A stretch of DNA of 32,000 bases from Candidatus Arthromitus sp. SFB-mouse-Japan (lineage in GTDB: Bacteria; Bacillota; Clostridia; Clostridiales; Clostridiaceae). Below the pieces are notes generated by a model. It had not been told where the DNA came from. It saw only the letters and a list, made by a program, of their open reading frames with translations, and made no database searches. The translations under genes and the position numbers were made by a program. Positions 9,801 through 30,363 of this stretch are shown piece after piece (position 1 is the stretch's first letter; every line of letters starts with the position of its first letter). The stretch is from positions 90,001-122,000 of the forward strand of contig NC_015913.1 of NCBI RefSeq assembly GCF_000270205.1. Reading direction: 5' to 3'.

Positions 9801-10703
9801 ATGACTTTTTCATATTTTGTTAAAACTGAGATACTTGAGAACTGTTTTAGATCATACAAACAAGCAGTTAGTGAATTAATGGGTGTGGTTTATGGTACAA
9901 GGTATACTATAAATAATAACGAGATTACTGTAAGAATAGATAATCATCTTTTAGTTAATTACTTGGATAATATGCTTAATATTATTAATGGATTTGGTTA
10001 TAGTGTAAATGAAGATAATGTAAAGTCAAATACATATATATTTAAGAGTTATTATATGTATAAGTTGTTATTGTATGTTGATAATGGAGAATTTAAACAT
10101 AATATTAATTTAATTATTGAAAATAAAATAATTGATAGAGCTTACCTTATTAGAGGATTATTTTTGATATGTGGGAGCATTATTAATCCAAATAATAGTT
10201 ATCATTTAGAATTTTGTTTGTATAATTATGATTTATCATATTTCTTAGATTTAGTGCTAAATTTTTTTTGTATTAAGAGTAAGATGATAAAAAGAAAAGA
10301 TAGGTTTATTATATATGTAAAGGAAGCAGAAAGTATATCGCAGTTTTTAAAGGTAATAGGGGTGCATAGATCTGTACTAGAATTTGAAAATATTAGAGTA
10401 TTGAAAGAGTATACTAATAATAAGAATAGACTTAAGAATTGTATTCAAGCTAATGAGGATAAATCTATAATAGCATCTGTAAAACAAGTTAGAGCTATTA
10501 TGTATATTGATAAATATATTGGTTTAGATAAGTTATCTAGTAAGCTTAAAGAAATTGCTATGGTAAGATTAAAATATAAGGAGGCACCACTTGGTGAACT
10601 TGGCAAATATTTAAATCCACCTATTGGCAAATCTGGGGTACTTCATAGATTAAAAAAGATAGAGAAAATTGCTAGTGAGTTAGAAGATAAATATGGCGTT
10701 TAA
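9801..10703 (+). CDS. whiA: Sporulation/cell-division transcription regulator WhiA
   Basis: 300 aa with a LAGLIDADG-like middle domain (RAYLIRGLFLICGSI) and a C-terminal HTH (LGELGKYLNPPIGKSGVLHRLKKI). Conserved position after yvcK. Confidence 0.9.
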   Translation: MTFSYFVKTEILENCFRSYKQAVSELMGVVYGTRYTINNNEITVRIDNHLLVNYLDNMLNIINGFGYSVNEDNVKSNTYIFKSYYMYKLLLYVDNGEFKHNINLIIENKIIDRAYLIRGLFLICGSIINPNNSYHLEFCLYNYDLSYFLDLVLNFFCIKSKMIKRKDRFIIYVKEAESISQFLKVIGVHRSVLEFENIRVLKEYTNNKNRLKNCIQANEDKSIIASVKQVRAIMYIDKYIGLDKLSSKLKEIAMVRLKYKEAPLGELGKYLNPPIGKSGVLHRLKKIEKIASELEDKYGV

Positions 10704-19773: not shown

Positions 19774-19807
19774 ACATTAGTATCTTTTGATACTAATGTT
19801 TTTTTTG
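19774..19807 (+). terminator. Rho-independent terminator after pyk
   Basis: ACATTAGTATC (19774-19784), loop TTTT, GATACTAATGT (19789-19799), then a T8 run. It overlaps the N-terminal extension of the next ORF in the ORF track, which argues against that extension. Confidence 0.7.
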
Positions 19808-19831
19808 ATTAAGGAGGAAAATTTTTTAAGT

Positions 19832-21217
19832 ATGGTGGATGTTGCTAATAAGTACATAGTAAAGATTGAGGATTATGATAGTAAGGGAAATGGAGTTTCA
19901 CATATAGACGATTTAGTTGTTTTTGTACCTAATACCATAGTTGGCGAAATTGTTGAGATATGTATAGAAAAGGTAAATAAGAATTTTTTAAGAGGTAGAG
20001 TTAATGAAGTGCTTTCAGTATCTGAATCAAGAGTATTGCCTATATGTGAGATATATGAAAAATGTGGTGGATGTAATATTCAGCACATGAATTATAAGGA
20101 GCAAATTAGATTTAAAGAAAGTAAAATAATAAATACATTAAATAAAATAGGTGATATACGGAATATTAAGATGGAAAAATTCTATGCGATGTCTATTCCA
20201 TATGAGTATAGGAATAAAGTTCAGGTACCATTTGGATTAAGTGATTCTGGTGTTAAAGCTGGATTTTATGAAAAAAATACTCATAATATTATCAATATGG
20301 ACTTCTGTCATATACAGTTTCACGAAGGTAATGATATTGTTAAGGAAACTAGAGAATATATAAAAAAAAATAATATAAAGCCTTATGATGAGAGTGCTAA
20401 TTATAAAAAAGGTTGTGATTATGGTCTTGTAAGACATTTGCTCATTAGAAAGGGATATAATACAAATGAAATCATGCTTGTAATTGTGTTAACTAGAGAT
20501 GACGAGGAATTTTTAAATGGGTATATGGATTTTATATTAGAAAAATTTAAGAATATAAAGACAATAATAGTTAACGTAAATAATGAAATAACAAATGTTA
20601 TTCTTGGAAAATACGAGAGGGTATTGTATGGTGATGGTTATATAAAAGACAAGATAAATGATTTTATATTTAGAATACATAGTAAATCATTTTTTCAGGT
20701 TAATACAAAACAATCTGAGAAGTTATATTCGGCTGCAATTGAAATGTGTGATTTAAAATTTGGAGATATTCTTCTAGATGCTTATTGTGGGATTGGTACC
20801 ATAGGTATATGTGCAAGTAGAAAAATAAAGCAGGTCTATGGTATAGAGGAAGTTAAAGAGAGCATAGTTGATGCTAATGAAAATAAGATTATAAATAATA
20901 TTAAAAATATAGAATTTATACATGGTAAGGTTGAAGATGAAATATTTAATTTAGTAAATAGCGGGGTTAATATAAATGCTGTTATTTTAGATCCTCCAAG
21001 AAAGGGTGTAAAGGAGAGGGTCTTACATAAAATAAGAGATATTAACTGTAGAAAAATAGTTTATATTTCATGTGATGTATCGACTCTCTCTAGAGATGCT
21101 AAGATATTAAATTCCCTTGGCTATAAGATTGATAAAATTAGAGGAGTTGATATGTTTTGTCAAACATATCATGTAGAAACTATTGTTAGATTTACTTTGC
21201 GACCATCTGGATTTTAA
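19832..21217 (+). CDS. 23S rRNA (uracil-5-)-methyltransferase, RlmD/RumA family
   Basis: TRAM-like N-terminus, Fe-S cysteine cluster CEIYEKCGGC, SAM motif LDAYCGIGTIG and catalytic-Cys region VYISCD. The ATG at 19832 is preferred because the TTG at 19787 lies inside the pyk terminator. The start remains uncertain because the SD spacing is long. Confidence 0.85.
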   Translation: MVDVANKYIVKIEDYDSKGNGVSHIDDLVVFVPNTIVGEIVEICIEKVNKNFLRGRVNEVLSVSESRVLPICEIYEKCGGCNIQHMNYKEQIRFKESKIINTLNKIGDIRNIKMEKFYAMSIPYEYRNKVQVPFGLSDSGVKAGFYEKNTHNIINMDFCHIQFHEGNDIVKETREYIKKNNIKPYDESANYKKGCDYGLVRHLLIRKGYNTNEIMLVIVLTRDDEEFLNGYMDFILEKFKNIKTIIVNVNNEITNVILGKYERVLYGDGYIKDKINDFIFRIHSKSFFQVNTKQSEKLYSAAIEMCDLKFGDILLDAYCGIGTIGICASRKIKQVYGIEEVKESIVDANENKIINNIKNIEFIHGKVEDEIFNLVNSGVNINAVILDPPRKGVKERVLHKIRDINCRKIVYISCDVSTLSRDAKILNSLGYKIDKIRGVDMFCQTYHVETIVRFTLRPSGF

Positions 21218-21255: not shown

Positions 21256-21284
21256 TTGCCTACATAAAATTAATATGTAGGCAA
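21256..21284. repeat. 11-bp perfect inverted repeat at the chromosome/prophage junction
   Basis: TTGCCTACATA (21256-21266) and TATGTAGGCAA (21274-21284) around a 7-nt loop. The repeat spans the integrase stop codon. Confidence 0.6.
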
Positions 21285-22460
21285 TATTATATTTTCAAAT
21301 ATATCTACTGATTGTTTAGCTAACTTATCTGTATTATGGGTATAAGTATTAAGTGTAGTTTGAATATTATTATGTCCTAGTCTATGTTGTACATCTTTAA
21401 TGTTAGCACCATTTTCAACTAGTAATGTAGCGTGGGTGTGTCTTAATGAGTGGAAATTAAAAGGTATACCTAATTCATAATTAATAACACGCGACGCGTA
21501 TTTAAATGAATCTGGTGTTAATAACATTCCGTTACTTTTTACGCACACCATATTTAATAAATGTTCTTTTAAATTTAGAGAACTTGTTGTGATTTTATCA
21601 TTTATGTTGTATTGTTTTATATAATGTTCTCCGTATTCTAAGCGTTTAATATCAATATATCTTTTATGATACTTTAGTGCGTTTTTCAAGGTATTACCTA
21701 TATTAATTATTCTGCTAGAGGAGGTGGTCTTAGGTTCACCAAAATACCAAGACGTATCCTTTTTATATATTAGTTTGTTAATATTGATTGTGTTATTATC
21801 TAAATCAATGTCATCCCACGTTAAACCCATTGCTTCACCTATGCGACAACCAGTATGATAACCAATCATTAAAGGGATATAGAAAGATGATCTTTCGGGA
21901 AAGCGTTTTATTATAGCGTTAAAATCATCATTAGTTATAATTTTATGTTTATCTGTAGTTTTGGTATTATTATACTTAGGAATTTTAACATATTGCATAG
22001 GGTTATTCTTTAGAAAATTCATAGGATGTACTGAGTAGTTAAGGGAACCACTCAATAAGGATATTATATTATTTAGATGATTTTTTGATATACCAGTTAA
22101 ATATTTGCTATTTATAAAATCTTGTAATTTACCAGGAGTTAAAGAAGTTAATTTTAAAATGCCTAAAGAGGGTTTAATATGTTTATCTATTATTAATCTA
22201 TAAGAGCGTTGAGTATTGTATCTGCAATTTAACAGTACATAAGCATCAAACCATAAATCCATATAATCTGATACTGATATATTTGTTTTTTGAAGTTGTT
22301 CACCATTTTCGTAATCTTCCAAAGCCTTTCTTAAAGCTGCTTCAGCTTCTTTTTTGGTTCTACCTCCAACTCTTTCAATCCTTTTTCTTTTTCCGTCGAC
22401 CCTAGCTGCCTCAAACGAGTAATACCACTTGTCTCCTCGTTTTCTAACACTTCCGGTCAT
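21270..22460 (-). CDS. int: Phage tyrosine integrase
   Basis: 396 aa. Catalytic region GCRIGEAMGLTWDDIDL, HSLRHTHATLL, LGH....T...YTH (R..HxxR..Y). SD GGAGATATAAAA precedes the ATG. Confidence 0.93.
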   Translation of the reverse strand: MTGSVRKRGDKWYYSFEAARVDGKRKRIERVGGRTKKEAEAALRKALEDYENGEQLQKTNISVSDYMDLWFDAYVLLNCRYNTQRSYRLIIDKHIKPSLGILKLTSLTPGKLQDFINSKYLTGISKNHLNNIISLLSGSLNYSVHPMNFLKNNPMQYVKIPKYNNTKTTDKHKIITNDDFNAIIKRFPERSSFYIPLMIGYHTGCRIGEAMGLTWDDIDLDNNTININKLIYKKDTSWYFGEPKTTSSSRIINIGNTLKNALKYHKRYIDIKRLEYGEHYIKQYNINDKITTSSLNLKEHLLNMVCVKSNGMLLTPDSFKYASRVINYELGIPFNFHSLRHTHATLLVENGANIKDVQHRLGHNNIQTTLNTYTHNTDKLAKQSVDIFENIILPTY

Positions 22461-22522
22461 TTTTATATCTCCTTTTTGATTTAATTTTACACGGGATTAT
22501 ATATAAAAGTAAATATAATAGT
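22458..22522. repeat. Integrase start plus upstream region, copy a of a ~65-bp repeat (copy b at 25466-25532)
   Basis: CAT..TTATATCTCC-TTTTTGATTTAATTTTACA..GGAATT/GGGATT..ATAAAAGTAAA.ATAATAGT is shared between the two copies, by eye. Confidence 0.75.
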
Positions 22523-22694
22523 AAATGTGATAGTTTATGCTGCGAATTAATCATAAATAGTTAATTGATGCTTTGTTTAATTTTATAATATTCTGAAAAG
22601 CATATCAATTCCTATTAAATTGTTATAAAATATAACCATAATAATTGAATATATTTAATACTAAAATATTATAATATTAAAGGGTGGTGATCTT

Positions 22695-23999
22695 ATGTTT
22701 ACTGGTATTAAGCTTAAGAATTTTAAATCACTAGTTGATTTTGAAGTTAAATTCCCTAGAAATAGAAAATTAGTTATAATTTATGGAGAAAATGGTGTTG
22801 GAAAATCTAATTTTATAGATGCCTTTAGTATTTTGAGAAAACTAGTTACTGGTAGACCCTTTGATGTAGATGATTTTTTGGAATTGGCAAATCTTAAATT
22901 CAATCACGGTCTTAGTAATATAGACATGGATGCTGAAGTTATTACAGATTTGTTTAAGACATCTAACCTTAAAAGGATTATTGAGTCATGTAAGACTATA
23001 AACTCAGAAGGCGAAAATATGGTATTATCATTTGACTTTACTTTAAGAGGAAAAAAAGGATCGTATATTATAGAAACTGATGATAATAGGCTAATATCTG
23101 AGAGATTAGAATATGTATATAATAAGCAAATTGTTGAATTCTTTAATGTTAATAATGATGAAATTTATTTAAACGAAAAAGTGATAAAAAATAAAGAATA
23201 TTACGAAGAACTGATAAATAATTGTGAAAAGTATTGGGGTAAAAATACTTTGACGTCTATGATATTTAAAGATATACAGTCAAAAAACGATAAGTATATG
23301 TCTAAATCTCTGACTAAGAATATGATAGAGATAATCGATTACTTTAGTAGTTTAAATATTAGTGTCAGTGGTCAAATCTTATTTCCTGGTTTACATTTAG
23401 GTGAAGGAATTACACAGATGTCAAATCAGGCAGAACTAGATAAGAATGAAAAAATTTTGGATGATATATTCACTCGTTTATATCCAGATATAAAACAGGT
23501 GTATTACAAAAAAGAGATAATTGATGATGGTAAAATAAATTATAAGTTGTACTTTAAAAAGCTTGTAGGTAATAAAATTTTAGATATAGATATTGAACGA
23601 GAGTCTAAAGGTACCAAACAAGTATTAAATATAACGAAACAAATTTTATATGGTTTAGATAAACAAGTGTTAATCATCGATGAATTTGATACAGGTATAC
23701 ATGATATATTAGCTAAATCTATGTTGCAGAGTTTATATGATAGTTTAGATATGCAAATAATTATTACTACGCATAATACATTACTCATAGAAGCTAAAGA
23801 CTTATGTAAAAACGCATATGTACTAACGCATAATATTGATGGAAGTAAGGATATGATAGCTATATCTGATTTTGAAAAAAGAATCCATAGTAATTTAAAT
23901 ATTAGAGATAGATATCTAAGAGGAATGTATGGAGGTGTGCCAATCCCGCTCGATATAGATTTTTCTGATTATAGTGATGCTAATTTGGAGGATTGTTAG
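22695..23999 (+). CDS. ABC/AAA_21-type ATPase (COG1106-like; AbiLi / AriA / OLD-ATPase-like), defence candidate
   Basis: Walker A GENGVGKSNF at residues ~31-40, signature-like ESKGTKQVL, Walker B/D-loop VLIIDEFDTGIH, H-loop ITTHN and a C-terminal RDRYLRGMYGGVP tail. SD GGTGGTGA precedes the ATG. Confidence 0.8.
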   Translation: MFTGIKLKNFKSLVDFEVKFPRNRKLVIIYGENGVGKSNFIDAFSILRKLVTGRPFDVDDFLELANLKFNHGLSNIDMDAEVITDLFKTSNLKRIIESCKTINSEGENMVLSFDFTLRGKKGSYIIETDDNRLISERLEYVYNKQIVEFFNVNNDEIYLNEKVIKNKEYYEELINNCEKYWGKNTLTSMIFKDIQSKNDKYMSKSLTKNMIEIIDYFSSLNISVSGQILFPGLHLGEGITQMSNQAELDKNEKILDDIFTRLYPDIKQVYYKKEIIDDGKINYKLYFKKLVGNKILDIDIERESKGTKQVLNITKQILYGLDKQVLIIDEFDTGIHDILAKSMLQSLYDSLDMQIIITTHNTLLIEAKDLCKNAYVLTHNIDGSKDMIAISDFEKRIHSNLNIRDRYLRGMYGGVPIPLDIDFSDYSDANLEDC

Positions 24000-24587
24000 A
24001 TGGGAGGTAAGAAAGCACAAATACAGTATTTACGCTGTATACTAATTTGTCATGGCAAATCAGAAAAAGAATTTATGGAGACTATAAAGCAAAATTTACG
24101 TTTAAAGATACACATAGAGTCAGATAAAAAAGGAAGTAAGTCTATTCAGATAAATAGTCTGAATAAGACTTTGAAAAATCACAAGTATGGTAAACGTGAT
24201 AATTTTTTAAGATATTTTGAGGATATAGAATTAATAAAAGGTAAAATAACATCTGAGTTTAAAATTTTTACGTTATTGGATACGGATGATAAAGAAAAAG
24301 AAATAAACTTGATAAAATATTTGAATAAAGAAATGTTTAAAGAGCATCATCTTTATGATCATATAGTACCTATTTATAATACTCCTAATTTAGAAAGTGT
24401 TTTTGAAGAAATTGGTCATGTATTTAAGAATAAAGGCGAGGCAAGAAAAAGAGAGTATAAAGATTTATTGAAACCATATCCAACCCCTAAACTTGCTCGG
24501 AATTATTTAAAAGATTTATCGGGAAAATTTGAAAAGAGCAAAAACACTAATCTTAATCATGTTATTAATTTTCTCCTTAATATATAA
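24000..24587 (+). CDS. Small Toprim-like partner protein (RloB / DUF4276 / AbiLii-like), defence candidate
   Basis: The ATG abuts the ATPase stop (TAGATG) and is preceded by GGAGG. The N-terminal ILICHGKSEKEF resembles the CEGxxTE strand-turn of RloB-type Toprim proteins. A later LLDTDD resembles the Toprim DxD motif. Family assignment is from memory of motifs, not from a search. Confidence 0.6.
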   Translation: MGGKKAQIQYLRCILICHGKSEKEFMETIKQNLRLKIHIESDKKGSKSIQINSLNKTLKNHKYGKRDNFLRYFEDIELIKGKITSEFKIFTLLDTDDKEKEINLIKYLNKEMFKEHHLYDHIVPIYNTPNLESVFEEIGHVFKNKGEARKREYKDLLKPYPTPKLARNYLKDLSGKFEKSKNTNLNHVINFLLNI

Positions 24588-24602
24588 CCCTTAAATAATT
24601 GC

Positions 24603-24768
24603 GAAATATAAGCTTACATTAAATTTATAAGTGCTTCGCGAAGCTATATTAATACTTGATTGTAGTAGAATACTTGGTATTGCTATTCATAGATGAATTA
24701 TGTAGAATATTAGTGTTCGCAAAAATAGTATGTCTATTTATGATTAGCAGCTGTTTTTAAATTTAACG
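24603..24768 (+). promoter_or_regulatory. CRISPR leader 1 (166 bp) with predicted sigma-70-type promoter
   Basis: Near-identical to 26605-26770 (about 3 substitutions by eye). -35 TTGCTA (24680-24685), 17-nt spacer, -10 TAGAAT (24703-24708). Contains the palindrome GCTTCGCGAAGC at 24633-24644. Confidence 0.6.
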
Positions 24769-24999
24769 GTCGCACCTCACGCAGGTGCGTGGATTGAAAT
24801 GAGGATAAAGGAGTTGGCAATTTACATAGTGCATCGTCGCACCTCACGCAGGTGCGTGGATTGAAATTACGTAGTTCTATAACTTTACCAATTATGTGTA
24901 GTCGCACCTCACGCAGGTGCGTGGATTGAAATATATCTAATATTTTAGCTAACTCTAACTGAGTCAGGTCGCACCTCACGTAGGTGCGTGGATTGAAGG
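24769..24999 (+). CRISPR. Mini-CRISPR array 1: four 32-bp repeats and three spacers (35/33/35 bp); type I-C-like repeat
   Basis: Repeats GTCGCACCTCACGCAGGTGCGTGGATTGAAAT at 24769-24800, 24836-24867, 24901-24932 and 24968-24999. The last repeat is degenerate (C14T, terminal AT>GG). Internal hairpin GCACCT/AGGTGC. The leader lies upstream and the degenerate repeat is distal, which gives + orientation. Confidence 0.93.
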
Positions 25000-25014
25000 T
25001 GCCAGACATATAAT

Positions 25015-25048
25015 AAAACCCCACTTGAAATTAATCAGGTGGGGTTTT
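25015..25048. terminator. Bidirectional hairpin between array 1 and the truncated repressor
   Basis: AAAACCCCAC (25015-25024) pairs with GTGGGGTTTT (25039-25048), with A/T runs on both sides. Confidence 0.6.
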
Positions 25049-25434
25049 AAAATCTCCGTCTAAGTTCTACGACCTTTCCGATTATGTGTATAGGTTTATC
25101 TGCAATGTCATTTTTATCGTAGTACATAGGCTCATATCTAGGATTTAACGACACAAGGCTTATACCGTCCTTGTGTTTTATTATTTTTTTACACGTTGCC
25201 TCGTCACCATTAACGCAGACTATAGCTATGTCTCCAGAGTTAACGTCTTGCTGTTTCCTGACTATTACGACATCTCCAGCATCCATTGTGGGAGACATCG
25301 AATCACCCTTGATTACGAGAGCAAAATACTCTCCTTGAGATGCAAGTTTAGGTGATATCTCTTCCCAACCGATAATTTCTTCAATCGCCGTTATGGGTAT
25401 ACCAGCTATAACAGTACCTAGTATGGGTATTTTA
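25047..25434 (-). pseudogene. 5'-truncated copy of the LexA-like repressor (S24 peptidase domain only)
   Basis: Homologous to 27113-27499. Encodes KIPILGTVIAGIPITAIEE..GDSMSPTMDAGD..HIIGKVVELRRRF but has no HTH domain. The reading frame has no start codon upstream of MSPTMD. Homology stops at ~25434. Confidence 0.8.
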
Positions 25435-25465
25435 ATAGCTTTATTGGATTGATCAGATCTGGAAT

Positions 25466-25532
25466 CATTTATTATATCTCCTTTTTTGATTTAATTTTAC
25501 AAGGAATTAGACATAAAAGTAAAGATAATAGT
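25466..25532. repeat. Copy b of the integrase-start/upstream repeat
   Basis: On the minus strand GGAGATATAATAAATGA matches the int SD plus ATGA (GGAGATATAAAAATGA), and similarity continues upstream. No integrase ORF follows: the ATG opens only a 16-codon frame. Confidence 0.75.
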
Positions 25533-25604
25533 TTTATCTGACAAATTAATGGGCAATATAAGTTTAGAAATTGTAGTATATTTGGGTATACCTTGTTATA
25601 ATTA

Positions 25605-26375
25605 TTGGTGAAGAAGGAGATAATATGGGGGTGTTTAAACATGGAAGAAAAAGAAAAGTTGCTTAAAAAATCTAAAGAAATTTTTAGCTTAGTTAGTTGT
25701 ATGTATTGTTATTATAGTGGTCCTTATAAAATTGAAACTGTTTGTATTTTATTATGTAATGCTTGGGAATTAATGTTGAAAGCTTATATAATCGGTAAGA
25801 AGGGGAAAGAAGGAATAGTATATAAAAATAAACAGAATAAGGGTAGGACTATTGGATTAAATGAATGTATAAGTAAAGTATTTACGAATAAGCATGATAT
25901 ATTACGTAAACATTTGGAGTCTGTAATTAGATATAGGAATTCGGTTGTACATTATACAGTTGATAGTTTTGACTTATCTTTATACTCTAAAATAGAGTAT
26001 TGTATAGTGAATTTTAAAGCGAAAATGTGTGAACTTCACAATGTTAATATGTCCGATATGATAGTTAACCAGGCTAATGAAGAAATCTTAAAAAATGATG
26101 TCGATTTGTATAAGTATAGTAAAAAGAGTTTGTGTAGGGAAATAAATAATGTATTGAAATCTTTGGGGATTGAGTTTAAAATCGATAGTCAATCCTTTGA
26201 ATTGTTTGATAGGGTGTACGGAATTAAAGAAAATAAAGAGTATTGTCTTATAAGTAATGTTAATAACAGGCCATCTTATAGATATTCATCAAGAGTTTTA
26301 AATTTTATCGTAGGATTGATACAAAAAAATCCTAACAATATTAAAGAAGTCTTAAAGAATAAAATAAAAAAATAA
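25605..26375 (+). CDS. HEPN-like (Rx4H motif; DUF3644-like) protein, abortive-infection/toxin candidate
   Basis: The motif NAWELMLKAYII, then ~55 residues, then IRYRNSVVHY (R-N-S-V-V-H = Rx4H) matches my recollection of DUF3644/HEPN proteins. The start is ambiguous: TTG 25605 in the ORF track or ATG 25641. Confidence 0.6.
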   Translation: MVKKEIIWGCLNMEEKEKLLKKSKEIFSLVSCMYCYYSGPYKIETVCILLCNAWELMLKAYIIGKKGKEGIVYKNKQNKGRTIGLNECISKVFTNKHDILRKHLESVIRYRNSVVHYTVDSFDLSLYSKIEYCIVNFKAKMCELHNVNMSDMIVNQANEEILKNDVDLYKYSKKSLCREINNVLKSLGIEFKIDSQSFELFDRVYGIKENKEYCLISNVNNRPSYRYSSRVLNFIVGLIQKNPNNIKEVLKNKIKK

Positions 26376-26604
26376 GCTAACCCCAGGGGCAAAGGAATTC
26401 TTGGTTTAATTTATTAAATTAAACCTACTCCTATTTAGGAACCCAGCCTTATCCATCCCAAGTTAGCTTACATTTATATAATATGTACATATCGTGTATA
26501 TTATTCATATACACTTACATTGTACAATAAATAATTTATAAAATCAATATTTTGTAGGTAAAAATCTGTTTAACTAGGCTTATTTAAGCTGGTTATTTTA
26601 CTCG

Positions 26605-26770
26605 GAAATATAAGCTTACATTAAATTTATAAGTGCTTCGCGAAGCTATATTAATACTTGATTGTAGTAGAATAATTGGTATTGCTATTCATAGATGAAT
26701 TATGTAGAATATTAGTGTTCGCAAAAATGGTGTGTCTATTTATGATTAGCAGCTGTTTTTAAATTTAACG
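26605..26770 (+). promoter_or_regulatory. CRISPR leader 2 (166 bp) with predicted promoter
   Basis: Duplicate of leader 1. -35 TTGCTA (26682-26687), 17-nt spacer, -10 TAGAAT (26705-26710). Palindrome GCTTCGCGAAGC at 26635-26646. Confidence 0.6.
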
Positions 26771-27067
26771 GTCGCACCTCACGCAGGTGCGTGGATTGAA
26801 ATTTATTTGTCCAAATTCTAAGTTGTCAAATATTTTGTCGCACCTCACGCAGGTGCGTGGATTGAAATTAGTAGGCTTGTCCTCCTTACTTTTAAACTCC
26901 CGTCGCACCTCATACAGGTGCGTGGATTGAAATTAAGATTTTTTATTGATGTGTACATAATCACCCCTGTCGCACCTCACGCAGGTGCGTGGATTGAAAT
27001 CTTTATAATGGATTTGCTTTATGAGTTATTTAGATGTCGCACCTCACGCAGGTGCGTGGATTGAAGG
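26771..27067 (+). CRISPR. Mini-CRISPR array 2: five 32-bp repeats and four spacers (34/33/35/35 bp); same repeat family
   Basis: Repeats at 26771-26802, 26837-26868, 26902-26933 (loop variant CATAC), 26969-27000 and 27036-27067 (terminal AT>GG, as in array 1). Confidence 0.93.
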
Positions 27068-27082
27068 TGTCATACATATAAT

Positions 27083-27114
27083 AAAAACCACTTGAAATTA
27101 ATCGAGTGGTTTTT
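27083..27114. terminator. Bidirectional hairpin between array 2 and the repressor gene
   Basis: AAAAACCACT (27083-27092) pairs with AGTGGTTTTT (27105-27114). Confidence 0.6.
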
Positions 27115-27826
27115 AAAATCTCCGTCTAAGTTCTACGACTTTACCAATTATGTGTATAGGTTTGCTTACAATGTCATTTTTATCATAGTACATAGGCTCA
27201 TATCTAGGATTTAACGACACAAGGCTTATACCGTCCTTGTGTTTTATTATTTTTTTACATGTTGCTTCATCACCATTAACGCAAACTATAGCTATGTCTC
27301 CAGAGTTAACGTCTTGCTGTTTCCTGACTATTACGACATCTCCAGCATCCATTGTGGGAGACATGGAGTCTCCTTTAATTTTTAACGCAAAGTACTCTCC
27401 TTGAGATGCAAGTTTAGGTGATATCTCTTCCCATCCGATAATCTCCTCAATCGCCGATATTGGGATACCCGCTATTACGGTGCCTAGTATGGGTATTTTT
27501 ACGCAGGCTTGTACGTTTAGACCAAGACCATTTTTATATGATATTACTTTAGTAGAACTGGTAACTTGTATAGGTTGCTGTGCATTGATAAATTCAATAT
27601 GATCTTGATCATTTAATAGTACGGATTCATCGATTCCTAATGCTTGGGCAATTATTTTAATTTTGGACTGAGGAATATCGTTGATACCAGTCTCTATCTT
27701 ATTTATTGTAGACCTAGCTTTATAACCGCACCTTTTTGCCAATTCATCTTGCGACAATCCACGCATTAGTCTAATACGTTTGATTTTGTCGCCTAGTTTC
27801 TTTTTTTCAATATTATTAGTATCCAT
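27113..27826 (-). CDS. Phage repressor, LexA/CI-like (Xre HTH + S24 peptidase)
   Basis: The N-terminal HTH (LSQDELAKRCGYKARSTINKIETG) is followed by an S24 domain with the GDSM Ser and a downstream Lys (CKKI). It is divergent from a cro-like gene. Confidence 0.92.
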   Translation of the reverse strand: MDTNNIEKKKLGDKIKRIRLMRGLSQDELAKRCGYKARSTINKIETGINDIPQSKIKIIAQALGIDESVLLNDQDHIEFINAQQPIQVTSSTKVISYKNGLGLNVQACVKIPILGTVIAGIPISAIEEIIGWEEISPKLASQGEYFALKIKGDSMSPTMDAGDVVIVRKQQDVNSGDIAIVCVNGDEATCKKIIKHKDGISLVSLNPRYEPMYYDKNDIVSKPIHIIGKVVELRRRF

Positions 27827-27832
27827 GTATAA

Positions 27833-27862
27833 ATTATAGTAAGCAATATGTCAATCAGTCAA
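27833..27862 (-). promoter_or_regulatory. Predicted repressor promoter giving a leaderless or near-leaderless mRNA
   Basis: On the minus strand: TTGACT (27862-27857), 18-nt spacer, TATAAT (27838-27833). The repressor ATG begins 7 nt after the -10 element and there is no SD between them. Confidence 0.45.
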
Positions 27863-27890
27863 TAAAAACAGCCTTTTTAATAAAAAAATG

Positions 27891-27919
27891 TTGACTTTAC
27901 ATAAACAAGGTGGTAAAGT
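27891..27919 (+). promoter_or_regulatory. Predicted rightward early promoter for the cro-like gene
   Basis: TTGACT (27891-27896), 17-nt spacer, TAAAGT (27914-27919). The SD GGAGGTGA precedes the ATG at 27966. Confidence 0.45.
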
Positions 27920-27965: not shown

Positions 27966-28169
27966 ATGGATAATATAAGGCTAGTGGATTGTATACACAA
28001 ATCAGGATTAAAACACAAATACATTGCAGGTCAACTGTCATTAAGTAAGCAGGGGTGGAGTAATAAAATCAACAACAGGACAGAGTTTAGGCTGTCAGAA
28101 ATTAAAAGATTATGCACATTACTTAACCTTGATAGTAAGCAGAGAGATCATATTTTTTTTGAGGATTAA
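27966..28169 (+). CDS. Cro-like small HTH protein
   Basis: 67 aa, divergent from the repressor. HTH-like segment (HKYIAGQLSLSKQGWSNKINN) and a strong SD. Confidence 0.7.
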   Translation: MDNIRLVDCIHKSGLKHKYIAGQLSLSKQGWSNKINNRTEFRLSEIKRLCTLLNLDSKQRDHIFFED

Positions 28170-28185
28170 GTAGATTTAAAATATA

Positions 28186-28258
28186 CAAAGTAATGATAAA
28201 TAACGATAAGTTACGCTAAGTTACAACTAGTTAAATAATAACGTAAAAATAGATTGAA
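28186..28258. repeat. Intergenic linker cassette, copy 1 (others at 28807-28866 and 30091-30144)
   Basis: TTACGCTAAGTTACAACTAGTTAAATAATAACGTAAAAATAGATTG resembles TTACGCTACGTTACAACTAAGTAAATAATAACATAAAAAGGAGATTG in copy 2. In copy 1 the SD is decayed (ATAGATT versus AGGAGATT) and no gene follows. Confidence 0.7.
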
Positions 28259-28287: not shown

Positions 28288-28503
28288 TTACCTTCTCGTT
28301 GGGTCATCTGATCTACCGACCAAATAATCAATAGATATATTGTAATAATCAGCTAATTTAATCAACGTATCATATTTAGGTTTAGATTTCCCATATTCGA
28401 GATTTTGATATGATCTATCGTTGATTTTAAGATAATTGGCTATATCTAATTGTGTTAGATTATTAGATAATCTTAGGGTTTTTAGTCTATCTTTAAAATC
28501 CAT
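28288..28503 (-). CDS. Xre-family HTH protein (71 aa), leftward member of divergent pair 2
   Basis: MDFKDRLKTLRLSNNLTQLDIANYL..SIDYLVGRSDDPTRR. The GTG start at 28545 in the ORF track overlaps the + strand -35 box, so the ATG at 28503 is preferred. Paralogue of 29554-29772. Confidence 0.8.
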   Translation of the reverse strand: MDFKDRLKTLRLSNNLTQLDIANYLKINDRSYQNLEYGKSKPKYDTLIKLADYYNISIDYLVGRSDDPTRR

Positions 28504-28538
28504 AAAAACATACCTTATTAAAAAATAAATAAAAATAG

Positions 28539-28567
28539 TTGACACGAACTAAACCTCGTGATATAGT
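28539..28567 (+). promoter_or_regulatory. Promoter for the 63-aa HTH gene
   Basis: TTGACA (28539-28544), 17-nt spacer, TATAGT (28562-28567). The inverted repeat ACCTCGT/ACGAGGT (28553-28559 / 28579-28585) brackets the -10 element. Confidence 0.6.
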
Positions 28568-28614: not shown

Positions 28615-28806
28615 ATGAATAATTTAAAAAAAATTCGAAATAAAGCTGGTCTAACCCAGATGTATTTATCTAGTCTGATAAATATAAACGTGCGTAGCTA
28701 CCAGAGTATAGAGCTCGGTAAAAGTTTACCGAGAGTAGATAGAGCATTAGCAATAGCAAAGATATTAAATACAACTGTGGAAGAACTATTTGGTAAAGAT
28801 AAGTAA
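28615..28806 (+). CDS. Xre-family HTH protein (63 aa), rightward member of pair 2
   Basis: MNNLKKIRNKAGLTQMYLS..AKILNTTVEELFGKDK. SD AAAGGAGG. Paralogue of 29890-30090. Confidence 0.8.
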   Translation: MNNLKKIRNKAGLTQMYLSSLININVRSYQSIELGKSLPRVDRALAIAKILNTTVEELFGKDK

Positions 28807-28866
28807 TGCTAAATTACGCTACGTTACAACTAAGTAAATAATAACATAAAAAGGAGATTGAGACAA
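28807..28866. repeat. Intergenic linker cassette, copy 2
   Basis: Shares ..ATAATAACATAAAAAGGAGATTGAGACAA followed by ATGGCAAATGA with copy 3. The first five codons (MANDI) are shared by the two downstream genes. Confidence 0.7.
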
Positions 28867-28938
28867 ATGGCAAATGACATAAAAGTATTTGAGCATGATG
28901 AATTTGGACAAATAAGAACAGTTTTAATTAATGAATGA
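28867..28938 (+). pseudogene. Detached N-terminal fragment of the antirepressor Bro-N domain (frameshifted)
   Basis: A good SD is followed by ATG and MANDIKVFEHDEFGQIRTVLINE*. The tandem AATGAATG at 28930-28937 shifts the frame. Removing one AATG fuses this fragment in frame to the 28931 ORF (..IRTVLINDQTWFVGKDVARALGY). Confidence 0.65.
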
Positions 28939-29889: not shown

Positions 29890-30090
29890 TTGCATAATAA
29901 TTTAAAGCCAATCCGTGATAAATTGGGTCTTACCCAAAATCAGGTATCAGATATAGCGGAGATAACTTTGAGAAGCTACCAAAACTATGAATACAGTAAA
30001 CGGATACCTAAAGTAAACATCGCATTAGATATAGCAAAAGCTCTTAACACAACGGTGGAAGAACTATTTAGTAATGATAAATTACAATAA
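29890..30090 (+). CDS. Xre-family HTH protein (66 aa), rightward member of pair 3
   Basis: The TTG start lies 6 nt after AAGGAG. (M)HNNLKPIRDKLGLTQNQVS..AKALNTTVEELFSNDKLQ aligns with the 63-aa paralogue. The start at 29821 in the ORF track lies inside the promoter. Confidence 0.75.
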   Translation: MHNNLKPIRDKLGLTQNQVSDIAEITLRSYQNYEYSKRIPKVNIALDIAKALNTTVEELFSNDKLQ

Positions 30091-30144
30091 ATTACGTTAA
30101 GTAATGATAAGTAACATAATAACACAAAAAGGAGATTAGGACAA
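30091..30144. repeat. Intergenic linker cassette, copy 3
   Basis: AAATTACGTTAAGTAATGATAAGTAACATAATAACACAAAAAGGAGATTAGGACAA precedes ATGGCAAATGAT. Confidence 0.7.
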
Positions 30145-30363
30145 ATGGCAAATGATATTTTATACACTGTACCCGAGGTATCAAAATTGATTAAAACCAA
30201 TCCATCTTATGTTTACACATTAATAAGATTAGGATTACTACCAGCGCTAAAACTTGGGAGTTTAAAAGTAAGGAGGACAAGCCTATTAGATTTTTTAGAG
30301 AGATTTGAAGGCAAGGATTTAACAGATTTGGAACATATAAGAGATTTAGAAACAGGAGTGTAA
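30145..30363 (+). CDS. Excisionase/MerR-type HTH DNA-binding protein (Xis-like)
   Basis: 72 aa. YTVPEVSKLIKTNPSYVYTLIRLGLLPALKLGS.KVRRTSLLDFLE is typical of excisionase-family HTH_17 domains. Confidence 0.65.
   Translation: MANDILYTVPEVSKLIKTNPSYVYTLIRLGLLPALKLGSLKVRRTSLLDFLERFEGKDLTDLEHIRDLETGV

Follow-up and report, generated by a model that had tools for sequence, protein, structure and literature searches.

Virus-borne mini-CRISPR arrays have been implicated in interviral conflict by Medvedeva et al. (2019; PMC6858448), and this has been modelled by Iranzo et al. (2020; PMC7099407), citing Faure et al. (2019). Examples are known from archaeal viruses and, as the literature states, from prophages (PMC6858448, PMC7099407). 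For the intact prophage SFBMP01 of SFB-mouse, two cas-less arrays with three and four spacer units have been reported, which have their 32-bp repeat and a leader of some 160 bp in common with a chromosomal array having six cas genes, and none of their spacers had a database match (Kuwahara et al., 2011, DNA Res; PMC3158464). The same authors noted the prophage-encoded arrays of Clostridioides difficile (PMC3158464), citing Sebaihia (2006). A dependence on type I Cas proteins encoded in the host chromosome would be common to the C. difficile prophage arrays and to those of SFB. The C. difficile arrays belong to subtype I-B and reside in a different host, and we know of no description of repressor-to-repressor reciprocal targeting for C. 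difficile prophages.

The window, i.e., the whole stretch of 32,000 nucleotides analysed here, consists of SFB (Candidatus Arthromitus) chromosome together with the lysogeny end of a prophage resembling SFBMP01, and its two arrays are almost certainly those of SFBMP01 or a close variant of them. Whereas the SFBMP01 spacers were left without targets by Kuwahara et al. (2011), four window spacers are mapped here and reciprocal targeting between prophages is found. Like the published mini-arrays (PMC6858448, PMC7099407), the SFB arrays are cas-less, bear leaders, are located on a virus and contain spacers against close relatives in the same host; in both cases the viruses target one another, and the copy in the carrier itself is a homologue with mismatches. 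The published mini-arrays, however, contain one or two spacers and the tested case concerns archaeal viruses, whereas 3-10 spacers and a type I-C repeat family are encountered here. Also unlike the published examples, the SFB arrays are physically linked to a repressor gene, and their mapped targets cluster in the immunity region of heteroimmune siblings that share one attachment site. As in superinfection immunity of the lambda cI type, a lysogen would exclude incoming relatives, and the array lies in a cassette with a cI/LexA-like HTH+S24 repressor; but repressor immunity acts on homoimmune phages alone, whereas the spacers would extend exclusion to heteroimmune siblings by DNA targeting. 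The arrays themselves (2011) and the participation of virus-borne arrays in virus-versus-virus conflict are already known, and no new mechanism is proposed. What sequence comparison adds is the identity of targets, their reciprocity, an empirical PAM and an association of the arrays with the immunity cassette in heteroimmune prophages competing for one attachment site. We consider it probable that the second spacer of a cas-less prophage array, which matches the repressor gene of a heteroimmune sibling, would serve to exclude this rival by means of the type I-C Cas proteins of the host, in a conflict that is reciprocal.

Positions 1-21217 of the window carry genes for UvrA, FtsW, PBP, UvrC, MurB, RapZ, CofD, WhiA, AsnB, DnaE, PFK, PK, and TRAM methyltransferase. 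The integrase gene marks the left end of the prophage and adjoins the host TRAM/tRNA-U5 methyltransferase gene (19787-21217). The lysogeny region that follows is composed of these features:

21270-22460, minus strand: prophage integrase (Pfam Phage_integrase, Phage_int_SAM_3, Arm-DNA-bind_4)
22695-24587, plus strand: defence cargo of two genes, for an AbiLi-like AAA_21 ATPase (434 aa) and for a partner of 195 aa
24603-24768, plus strand: leader of array 1 (24603-24800 is 98% identical to 26605-26802, repeat family D4)
24769-24999, plus strand: CRISPR array 1, with three spacers (35, 33, and 35 nt) between four 32-nt repeats
25014-25049, no strand: hairpin after array 1 (fold -22.8 kcal/mol, z=-6.97), with A and T runs around it
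25047-25477, minus strand: truncated repressor remnant (Pfam Peptidase_S24), S24 domain plus a P0007-type linker, IINDSRSDQSNK
25605-26375, plus strand: DUF3644/EC042_2821-like gene (Pfam; PADLOC PDC-S19, E=5.6e-54), a candidate defence gene
26605-26770, plus strand: leader of array 2, repeat family D4, with promoter-like sites
26771-27067, plus strand: CRISPR array 2, five repeats and four spacers, the third of which is also present in the array of sibling locus L162
27082-27115, no strand: hairpin after array 2 (fold -17.1 kcal/mol, z=-7.70), with A and T runs around it
27113-27826, minus strand: resident cI/LexA-like repressor, 237 aa (Pfam HTH_3 and Peptidase_S24)

Both arrays lie within the prophage, between the integrase and the repressor/cro switch, and the same layout is seen in an IMG/VR contig of the SFB-mouse-NL prophage. 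A promoter-like site for the repressor is located at 27862-27833 (11 of 12 matches), facing the promoter-like sites of a cro-like DUF739/HTH gene (27966-28169) on the opposite strand. The leaders of about 166 nt each are AT-rich, and that of array 1 contains promoter-like sites at 24680-24708 and 24716-24744. Each array is followed by a hairpin, beyond which lies the 3' terminus of a coding sequence for an S24 peptidase on the complementary strand; according to the predicted folds, the hairpins at 25014-25049 and 27082-27115 likely function as bidirectional terminators between the array and the repressor gene or its remnant. A match of the terminator hairpin to NsiR1 in Rfam was below threshold and this identity was dismissed.

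The repeat of array 1, GTCGCACCTCACGCAGGTGCGTGGATTGAAAT, forms a hairpin of 7 bp followed by a 3' tail of 11 nt, and its fourth copy is degenerate, ending in ...GAAGG. It belongs to a family of the form GTCGC...stem-loop...GTGCGTGGATTGAAA[T/C] which, when the loop is left free, occurs in at least 120 genomic stretches, and among the matches listed these are mostly I-C arrays of Paenibacillus and Bacillus, with no entry for the cas locus of SFB. In Peptostreptococcus faecalis (locus L116), an array of this family directly follows, in the same orientation, genes for Cas8c/Csd1, Cas7/Csd2, Cas4, Cas1c, and Cas2. Twenty-two distinct spacers from the window and sibling arrays were mapped to the window and sibling loci, and TTC flanks the protospacer in six of the 10 mapped protospacer families, the remainder having TTT (twice), CTC, and ATC. 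The background frequency of TTC is 0.017, and the chance probability is 6e-6 already at four of eight. Repeat family and TTC enrichment together support an assignment of the arrays to type I-C and the orientation used here. No cas genes were found in the 32-kb window, and in the absence of an adjacent cas operon the arrays are orphans that must depend on a chromosomal cas locus elsewhere. A host cas locus of the matching subtype and competent to use these arrays is suggested by the repeat family and by the literature, in which seven Cas proteins are reported for turkey SFB (PMC9482736), while a literature search on the cas subtype of SFB returned nothing.

Two sibling prophages, SFB-mouse-NL (L008 1579-1610, equivalent to L169 10702-10733) and L167 (1773-1804), contain solitary terminal-type repeats, ...GATTGAAGT, with zero spacers. 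In other siblings this site, immediately upstream of the terminator and of the 3' end of the repressor gene, is taken by an array of 3-10 spacers. The solitary repeats are either the remains of collapsed arrays or starting points for new ones. Arrays with a loop variant of the same repeat family are present in an Arthromitus-labelled MAG (L107 6600-7950), where, in the part of the contig covered, the neighbour is a type I restriction-modification system (HsdR, HsdS, HsdM) and not cas genes.

Spacer 2 of array 1, TACGTAGTTCTATAACTTTACCAATTATGTGTA, is flanked by two perfect 32-nt repeats. It and its partial matches within the prophage are the following:

24868-24900, plus strand: spacer 2 of array 1, with a perfect protospacer and TTC in sibling loci L162-L166
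27121-27156, plus strand: resident counterpart of protospacer and flank, TCC at 27121-27123 and 27 of 33 identical positions at 27124-27156
25058-25090, plus strand: second partial self-match, 24 of 33, TCC flank, within the repressor remnant

Realignment bore out the 27/33 match to positions 27124-27156 on which the original prediction was built. The match lies, as had been claimed, in the 3'-terminal part of the resident HTH+S24 repressor gene, although not in its very last codons, stopping 11 nt before the stop codon (...LRRRF*). Spacer and gene differ at positions 1, 2, 4, 5, 13, and 14, so that four of the first five spacer positions are indeed mismatched, and the resident flank is TCC rather than TTC. 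The peptide reading is also correct: on the gene strand the spacer encodes HIIGKVIELR and the resident gene HIIGKVVELR, with the codon differences GTC/GTT, GTA/ATA, CTT/CTA, AGA/CGT, and CGG/AGA, of which the V/I change (GTA/ATA) alone is non-synonymous.

With a G+C content of 29%, the window is a place where a fortuitous similarity in AT-rich sequence might be expected. However, among 2000 shuffled versions of spacer 2, for each of which the best match in the window on either strand was recorded (mean 21.35, sd 0.84), none scored 27 and the maximum was 25. After the matches of 27/33 and 24/33, the next best match of spacer 2 itself is 23/33, and perfect matches exist at the homologous position of sibling genes. 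Chance, which had been named, together with the lack of a closer match in related phages, as the outcome that would overturn the relationship, is thereby refuted.

The same 27/33 complementarity, together with the convergent arrangement of array and repressor gene around a common terminator, could also be read as regulatory, i.e., a crRNA might bind the gene of the resident repressor or the 3' end of the corresponding mRNA and tune the repressor level. We regard this as very improbable. Interference by type I systems is seed-dependent, and mismatches at positions 1, 2, 4, and 5 in combination with a non-TTC flank should block R-loop initiation by type I Cascade; moreover, type I-C systems act on DNA and not on mRNA, and a perfect target exists elsewhere, in the siblings. 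That the resident gene is spared owing to seed mismatches and the TCC flank is a reasonable reading of the alignment. Some I-C systems may accept TCC as a weak PAM. Partial matches could prime adaptation against the carrier (PMC7099407).

The mismatches to the resident gene do not stand out from their surroundings. The S24 domains of carrier and target are 87.0% identical at the DNA level, their differences being mostly synonymous, and six or more mismatches occur in 103 of 352 sliding 33-nt windows across the S24 pair. No localized escape signature, in the form of a concentration of mismatches at the resident protospacer, was found by these sliding windows. The six mismatches of the resident therefore represent ordinary allelic divergence and give no independent signature of selection at this site.

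Direct searches returned little. Megablast of 24600-27900 and blastn of spacer 2 against GenBank phages gave chance matches alone, and a scan of IMG/VR for exact spacer 2 gave zero matches. With a back-translated pattern for HIIGKV[VI]ELR, ten loci were obtained from IMG/VR, one of them a 32/33 match with TTC in the SFB-mouse-NL prophage contig, and 29 loci from the metagenome collection, the closest at 25/33. Perfect targets were reached by a protein search with the resident repressor followed by an exact-protein look-up of contigs. This search distinguishes at least three repressor types, which have the S24 domain in common and unrelated HTH domains. One of them, termed P0007 (MPNIGNRIKLRRK...), is an HTH+S24 repressor of 204 aa, and the 3' end of its gene contains a 33/33 match to spacer 2 with 5'-TTC in five independent contigs, L162-L166, from one NCBI assembly and four ENA metagenomes. 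In L162, a metagenome contig of 95 kb, the protospacer (10572-10604) lies within coding sequence 10001-10615 and outside any array. Matches of 32/33 with TTC are present in L167, where the repressor has 235 aa, and in the truncated repressor remnant of the Candidatus Arthromitus SFB-mouse-NL prophage (CP008713.1; L169/L008), and the single mismatch of these alleles is at the PAM-distal position 29. Related prophages thus contain the perfect, TTC-flanked match that had been predicted, and the supposition that the spacer came from a homologous but non-identical gene holds as well, carrier and target being 87% identical in S24 DNA and non-homologous in their HTH domains.

The siblings come from different metagenomes, and their coexistence with the phage of the window in one animal is presumed. 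The carriers of P0007 are close relatives of the resident prophage. Over about 8 kb, the host flanks of the window are 99.7% identical to those of L162 and L169, and in all three the integrase adjoins the TRAM methyltransferase, PK, PFK, and DnaE genes; the same gene order at this identity marks the window as SFB chromosome with a prophage at that attachment site. The replication module of P0007-type prophages is 92-96% identical to that of the window, whereas the HTH domain and neighbouring early genes are non-homologous, so that these prophages are close but heteroimmune siblings. Window positions 22393-25477, comprising the AbiL-like pair, leader, array 1, and S24 remnant, are colinear with L163 at 95.8%, and L163 holds an intact P0007 repressor at the position of the remnant in the window. 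From this colinearity it follows that array 1 and the remnant are what remains of an older immunity cassette. The remnant lacks the HTH domain and has no start codon upstream, which shows that recombination brought in an immunity cassette immediately upstream of the conserved S24 domain. A second cassette, comprising the DUF3644 gene together with a leader, array 2, and the repressor of 237 aa, was added later beside the older one. Two haplotype blocks exist for the repressor 3' end together with the terminator and the terminal repeat: block A (TTC-TACGTAG...) is the target and block B (TCC-GTCTAAG...) is found in both window copies. The equivalent remnant in SFB-mouse-NL is annotated by NCBI as a 'LexA family protein' of 217 aa.

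This history also admits that the spacer is self-derived, an ancestor having possessed the TTC+TACGTAG... allele in its own repressor gene and having survived by recombinational replacement of the 3' end or of the immunity module. Array 1 is orthologous to the L163 array, which lies beside a perfect protospacer in the colinear segment, the remnant next to array 1 is a truncated P0007-type repressor, and the 3' end, terminator, and terminal repeat recombine as a unit. Self-acquisition followed by recombinational escape is therefore possible given the history of the cassette, but it requires a lethal self-targeting intermediate, while a perfect external source is already present in extant siblings. 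Other spacers of the same arrays match immunity types never resident here, and reciprocal targeting fits a conflict between phages. We judge a self-derived origin to be quite unlikely and less parsimonious than capture from a heteroimmune sibling.

Evidence that targeting also runs in the opposite direction comes from other spacers and their matches, for which the relevant positions in the window are:

27593-27630, plus strand: protospacer in the resident repressor, 35 of 35 (27596-27630) plus TTC, codons DESVLLNDQDHI
28391-28424, plus strand: near-protospacer for spacer 3 of L162, 32 of 34, TTC, inside HTH gene 28288-28545
24933-24967, plus strand: spacer 3 of array 1, 33 of 35 to L171 2738-2772, TTC flank
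30256-30288, minus strand: near-self match of array 2 spacer 2, 32 of 33, in HTH_17 gene 30145-30363

Spacer 5 of the arrays in L162, L164, and L165 matches the repressor gene of the window at all 35 positions with TTC, which is the reciprocal of the match of spacer 2 to their own repressor gene. In SFB-mouse-NL, one spacer matches the start-codon region of P0007 (33/33) and another the adjacent HTH gene (33/34). The target of array 1 spacer 3 is an HTH gene in the immunity region of L171, which represents a third immunity type, and the intergenic stretch immediately before the third-type repressor gene in the same locus is matched by array 2 spacer 4 (34/35, TTC). In total, four of the seven window spacers were mapped, three to sibling prophages and one to a near-perfect copy in the own prophage and in siblings; exact IMG/VR scans for five other window spacers gave zero matches. 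The apparent preference for immunity regions is partly an ascertainment effect, because target mapping covered 10-20 kb around the repressor of each sibling.

The spacer with a near-perfect copy in its own prophage is array 2 spacer 2 (26869-26901), which differs from the HTH_17 (excisionase-like) gene at seed position 3, where the flank is ATC. All siblings examined carry this 32/33+ATC allele or a more diverged one, a pattern that resembles either an escape through PAM and seed that has become fixed or the tolerance of a near-self spacer. The 35-nt spacer at 26934-26968 (array 2 spacer 3) is identical to the leader-proximal spacer 1 of L162, L164, and L165, and no target for it was found by IMG/VR scan or in the sibling loci. 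A spacer common to arrays of heteroimmune siblings suggests that array segments are exchanged by recombination rather than that it was acquired independently.

It might be argued that the arrays are inactive relics which recombined into the prophage from the host chromosome and are unexpressed or unused, the spacer match being a record of an old host infection. The window is without cas genes, five of its seven spacers have no exact match in IMG/VR, and some siblings retain a solitary terminal repeat alone. However, the repeats are perfectly conserved, the leaders of arrays 1 and 2 share 98% identity, and array content changes from one near-identical prophage to the next, with spacer numbers from 0 to 10. 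Furthermore, the mapped targets are TTC-flanked sibling prophages while self copies are mismatched in flank or seed, which is expected only if self-targeting spacers are purged. A small probability is therefore all that we assign to the relic explanation, although it is not negligible.

For the preferred explanation, an exclusion of heteroimmune rivals, the following course of events can be envisaged. The two cas-less mini-arrays, with repeats of a type I-C family and leaders of their own, would each be transcribed in the direction of a repressor-gene 3' end, that of the truncated remnant for array 1 and that of the intact gene for array 2. Spacer 2 would stem from the repressor 3' end of a heteroimmune sibling that occupies the same attachment site in this host species, or at the least it has the identical sequence. 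After transcription from the leader and processing by the chromosomal type I-C Cas proteins of the host, the crRNA would guide Cascade and Cas3 to sibling DNA bearing 5'-TTC and the protospacer, and a rival beyond the control of the resident repressor would be excluded. The resident repressor gene and the remnant would escape thanks to their TCC flank and the mismatches at positions 1, 2, 4, and 5. With the perfect, TTC-flanked spacer of the sibling array aimed at the repressor gene of the window, the conflict would be fought both ways.

A more tentative possibility, which we hold to be less probable than not, is that the array forms part of an immunity cassette composed of leader, array, bidirectional terminator, and repressor, and constitutes a second, programmable layer of immunity directed against the immunity genes of heteroimmune siblings in competition for one attachment site. 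If so, spacers that can be carried without self-harm would be restricted to the divergent immunity region or to diverged patches such as the S24 3' end. Outside the immunity region siblings are 92-96% identical, harmless spacers would be limited, and this would explain why repressor genes are targeted from both sides. The spacer of an incoming phage against the repressor gene of a resident rival could then kill the lysogen, or a Cas3-driven deletion could free the occupied attachment site. Such pressure would favour swaps of immunity cassettes like the one that left the remnant at 25047-25477.

SFB are key immunomodulatory gut symbionts that are not routinely culturable and whose phages are almost unstudied. 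The exclusion of heteroimmune rivals would give a concrete function to prophage arrays, and the empirical PAM for the SFB CRISPR system may be useful in SFB genome engineering. Prophages of this kind would also offer a natural system for metagenomic tests of game-theory predictions on mutually targeting temperate viruses.

Besides the arrays, the lysogeny region is a small defence island with the AbiLi-like pair and the DUF3644/EC042_2821 gene of candidate family PDC-S19. The ATPase of the pair is recognised by Pfam (AAA_21) and by PADLOC (AbiLi, E=1.3e-40), and the same pair lies beside the array in L163. Sibling prophages carry other cargo at the position of the island, namely RloB with AAA_21, RnlA/RnlB, or a KAP NTPase. 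Spacer 1 of the SFB-mouse-NL array (L003 1446-1479) ends in a 10-nt copy of the repeat start, GTCGCACCTC, before the next repeat and may have arisen by slipped integration or by partial duplication of the repeat. Right of the repressor gene, the early region contains AT-rich elements of 60 nt repeated at 28190-28249, 28793-28852, and 30071-30130, and duplicated pairs of HTH genes of about 1.27 kb (28684-28880 and 29962-30158; families D5-D7, D9, and D10 together with the 60-nt elements). These repeated elements and duplicated pairs may be iterated operator or regulator modules.
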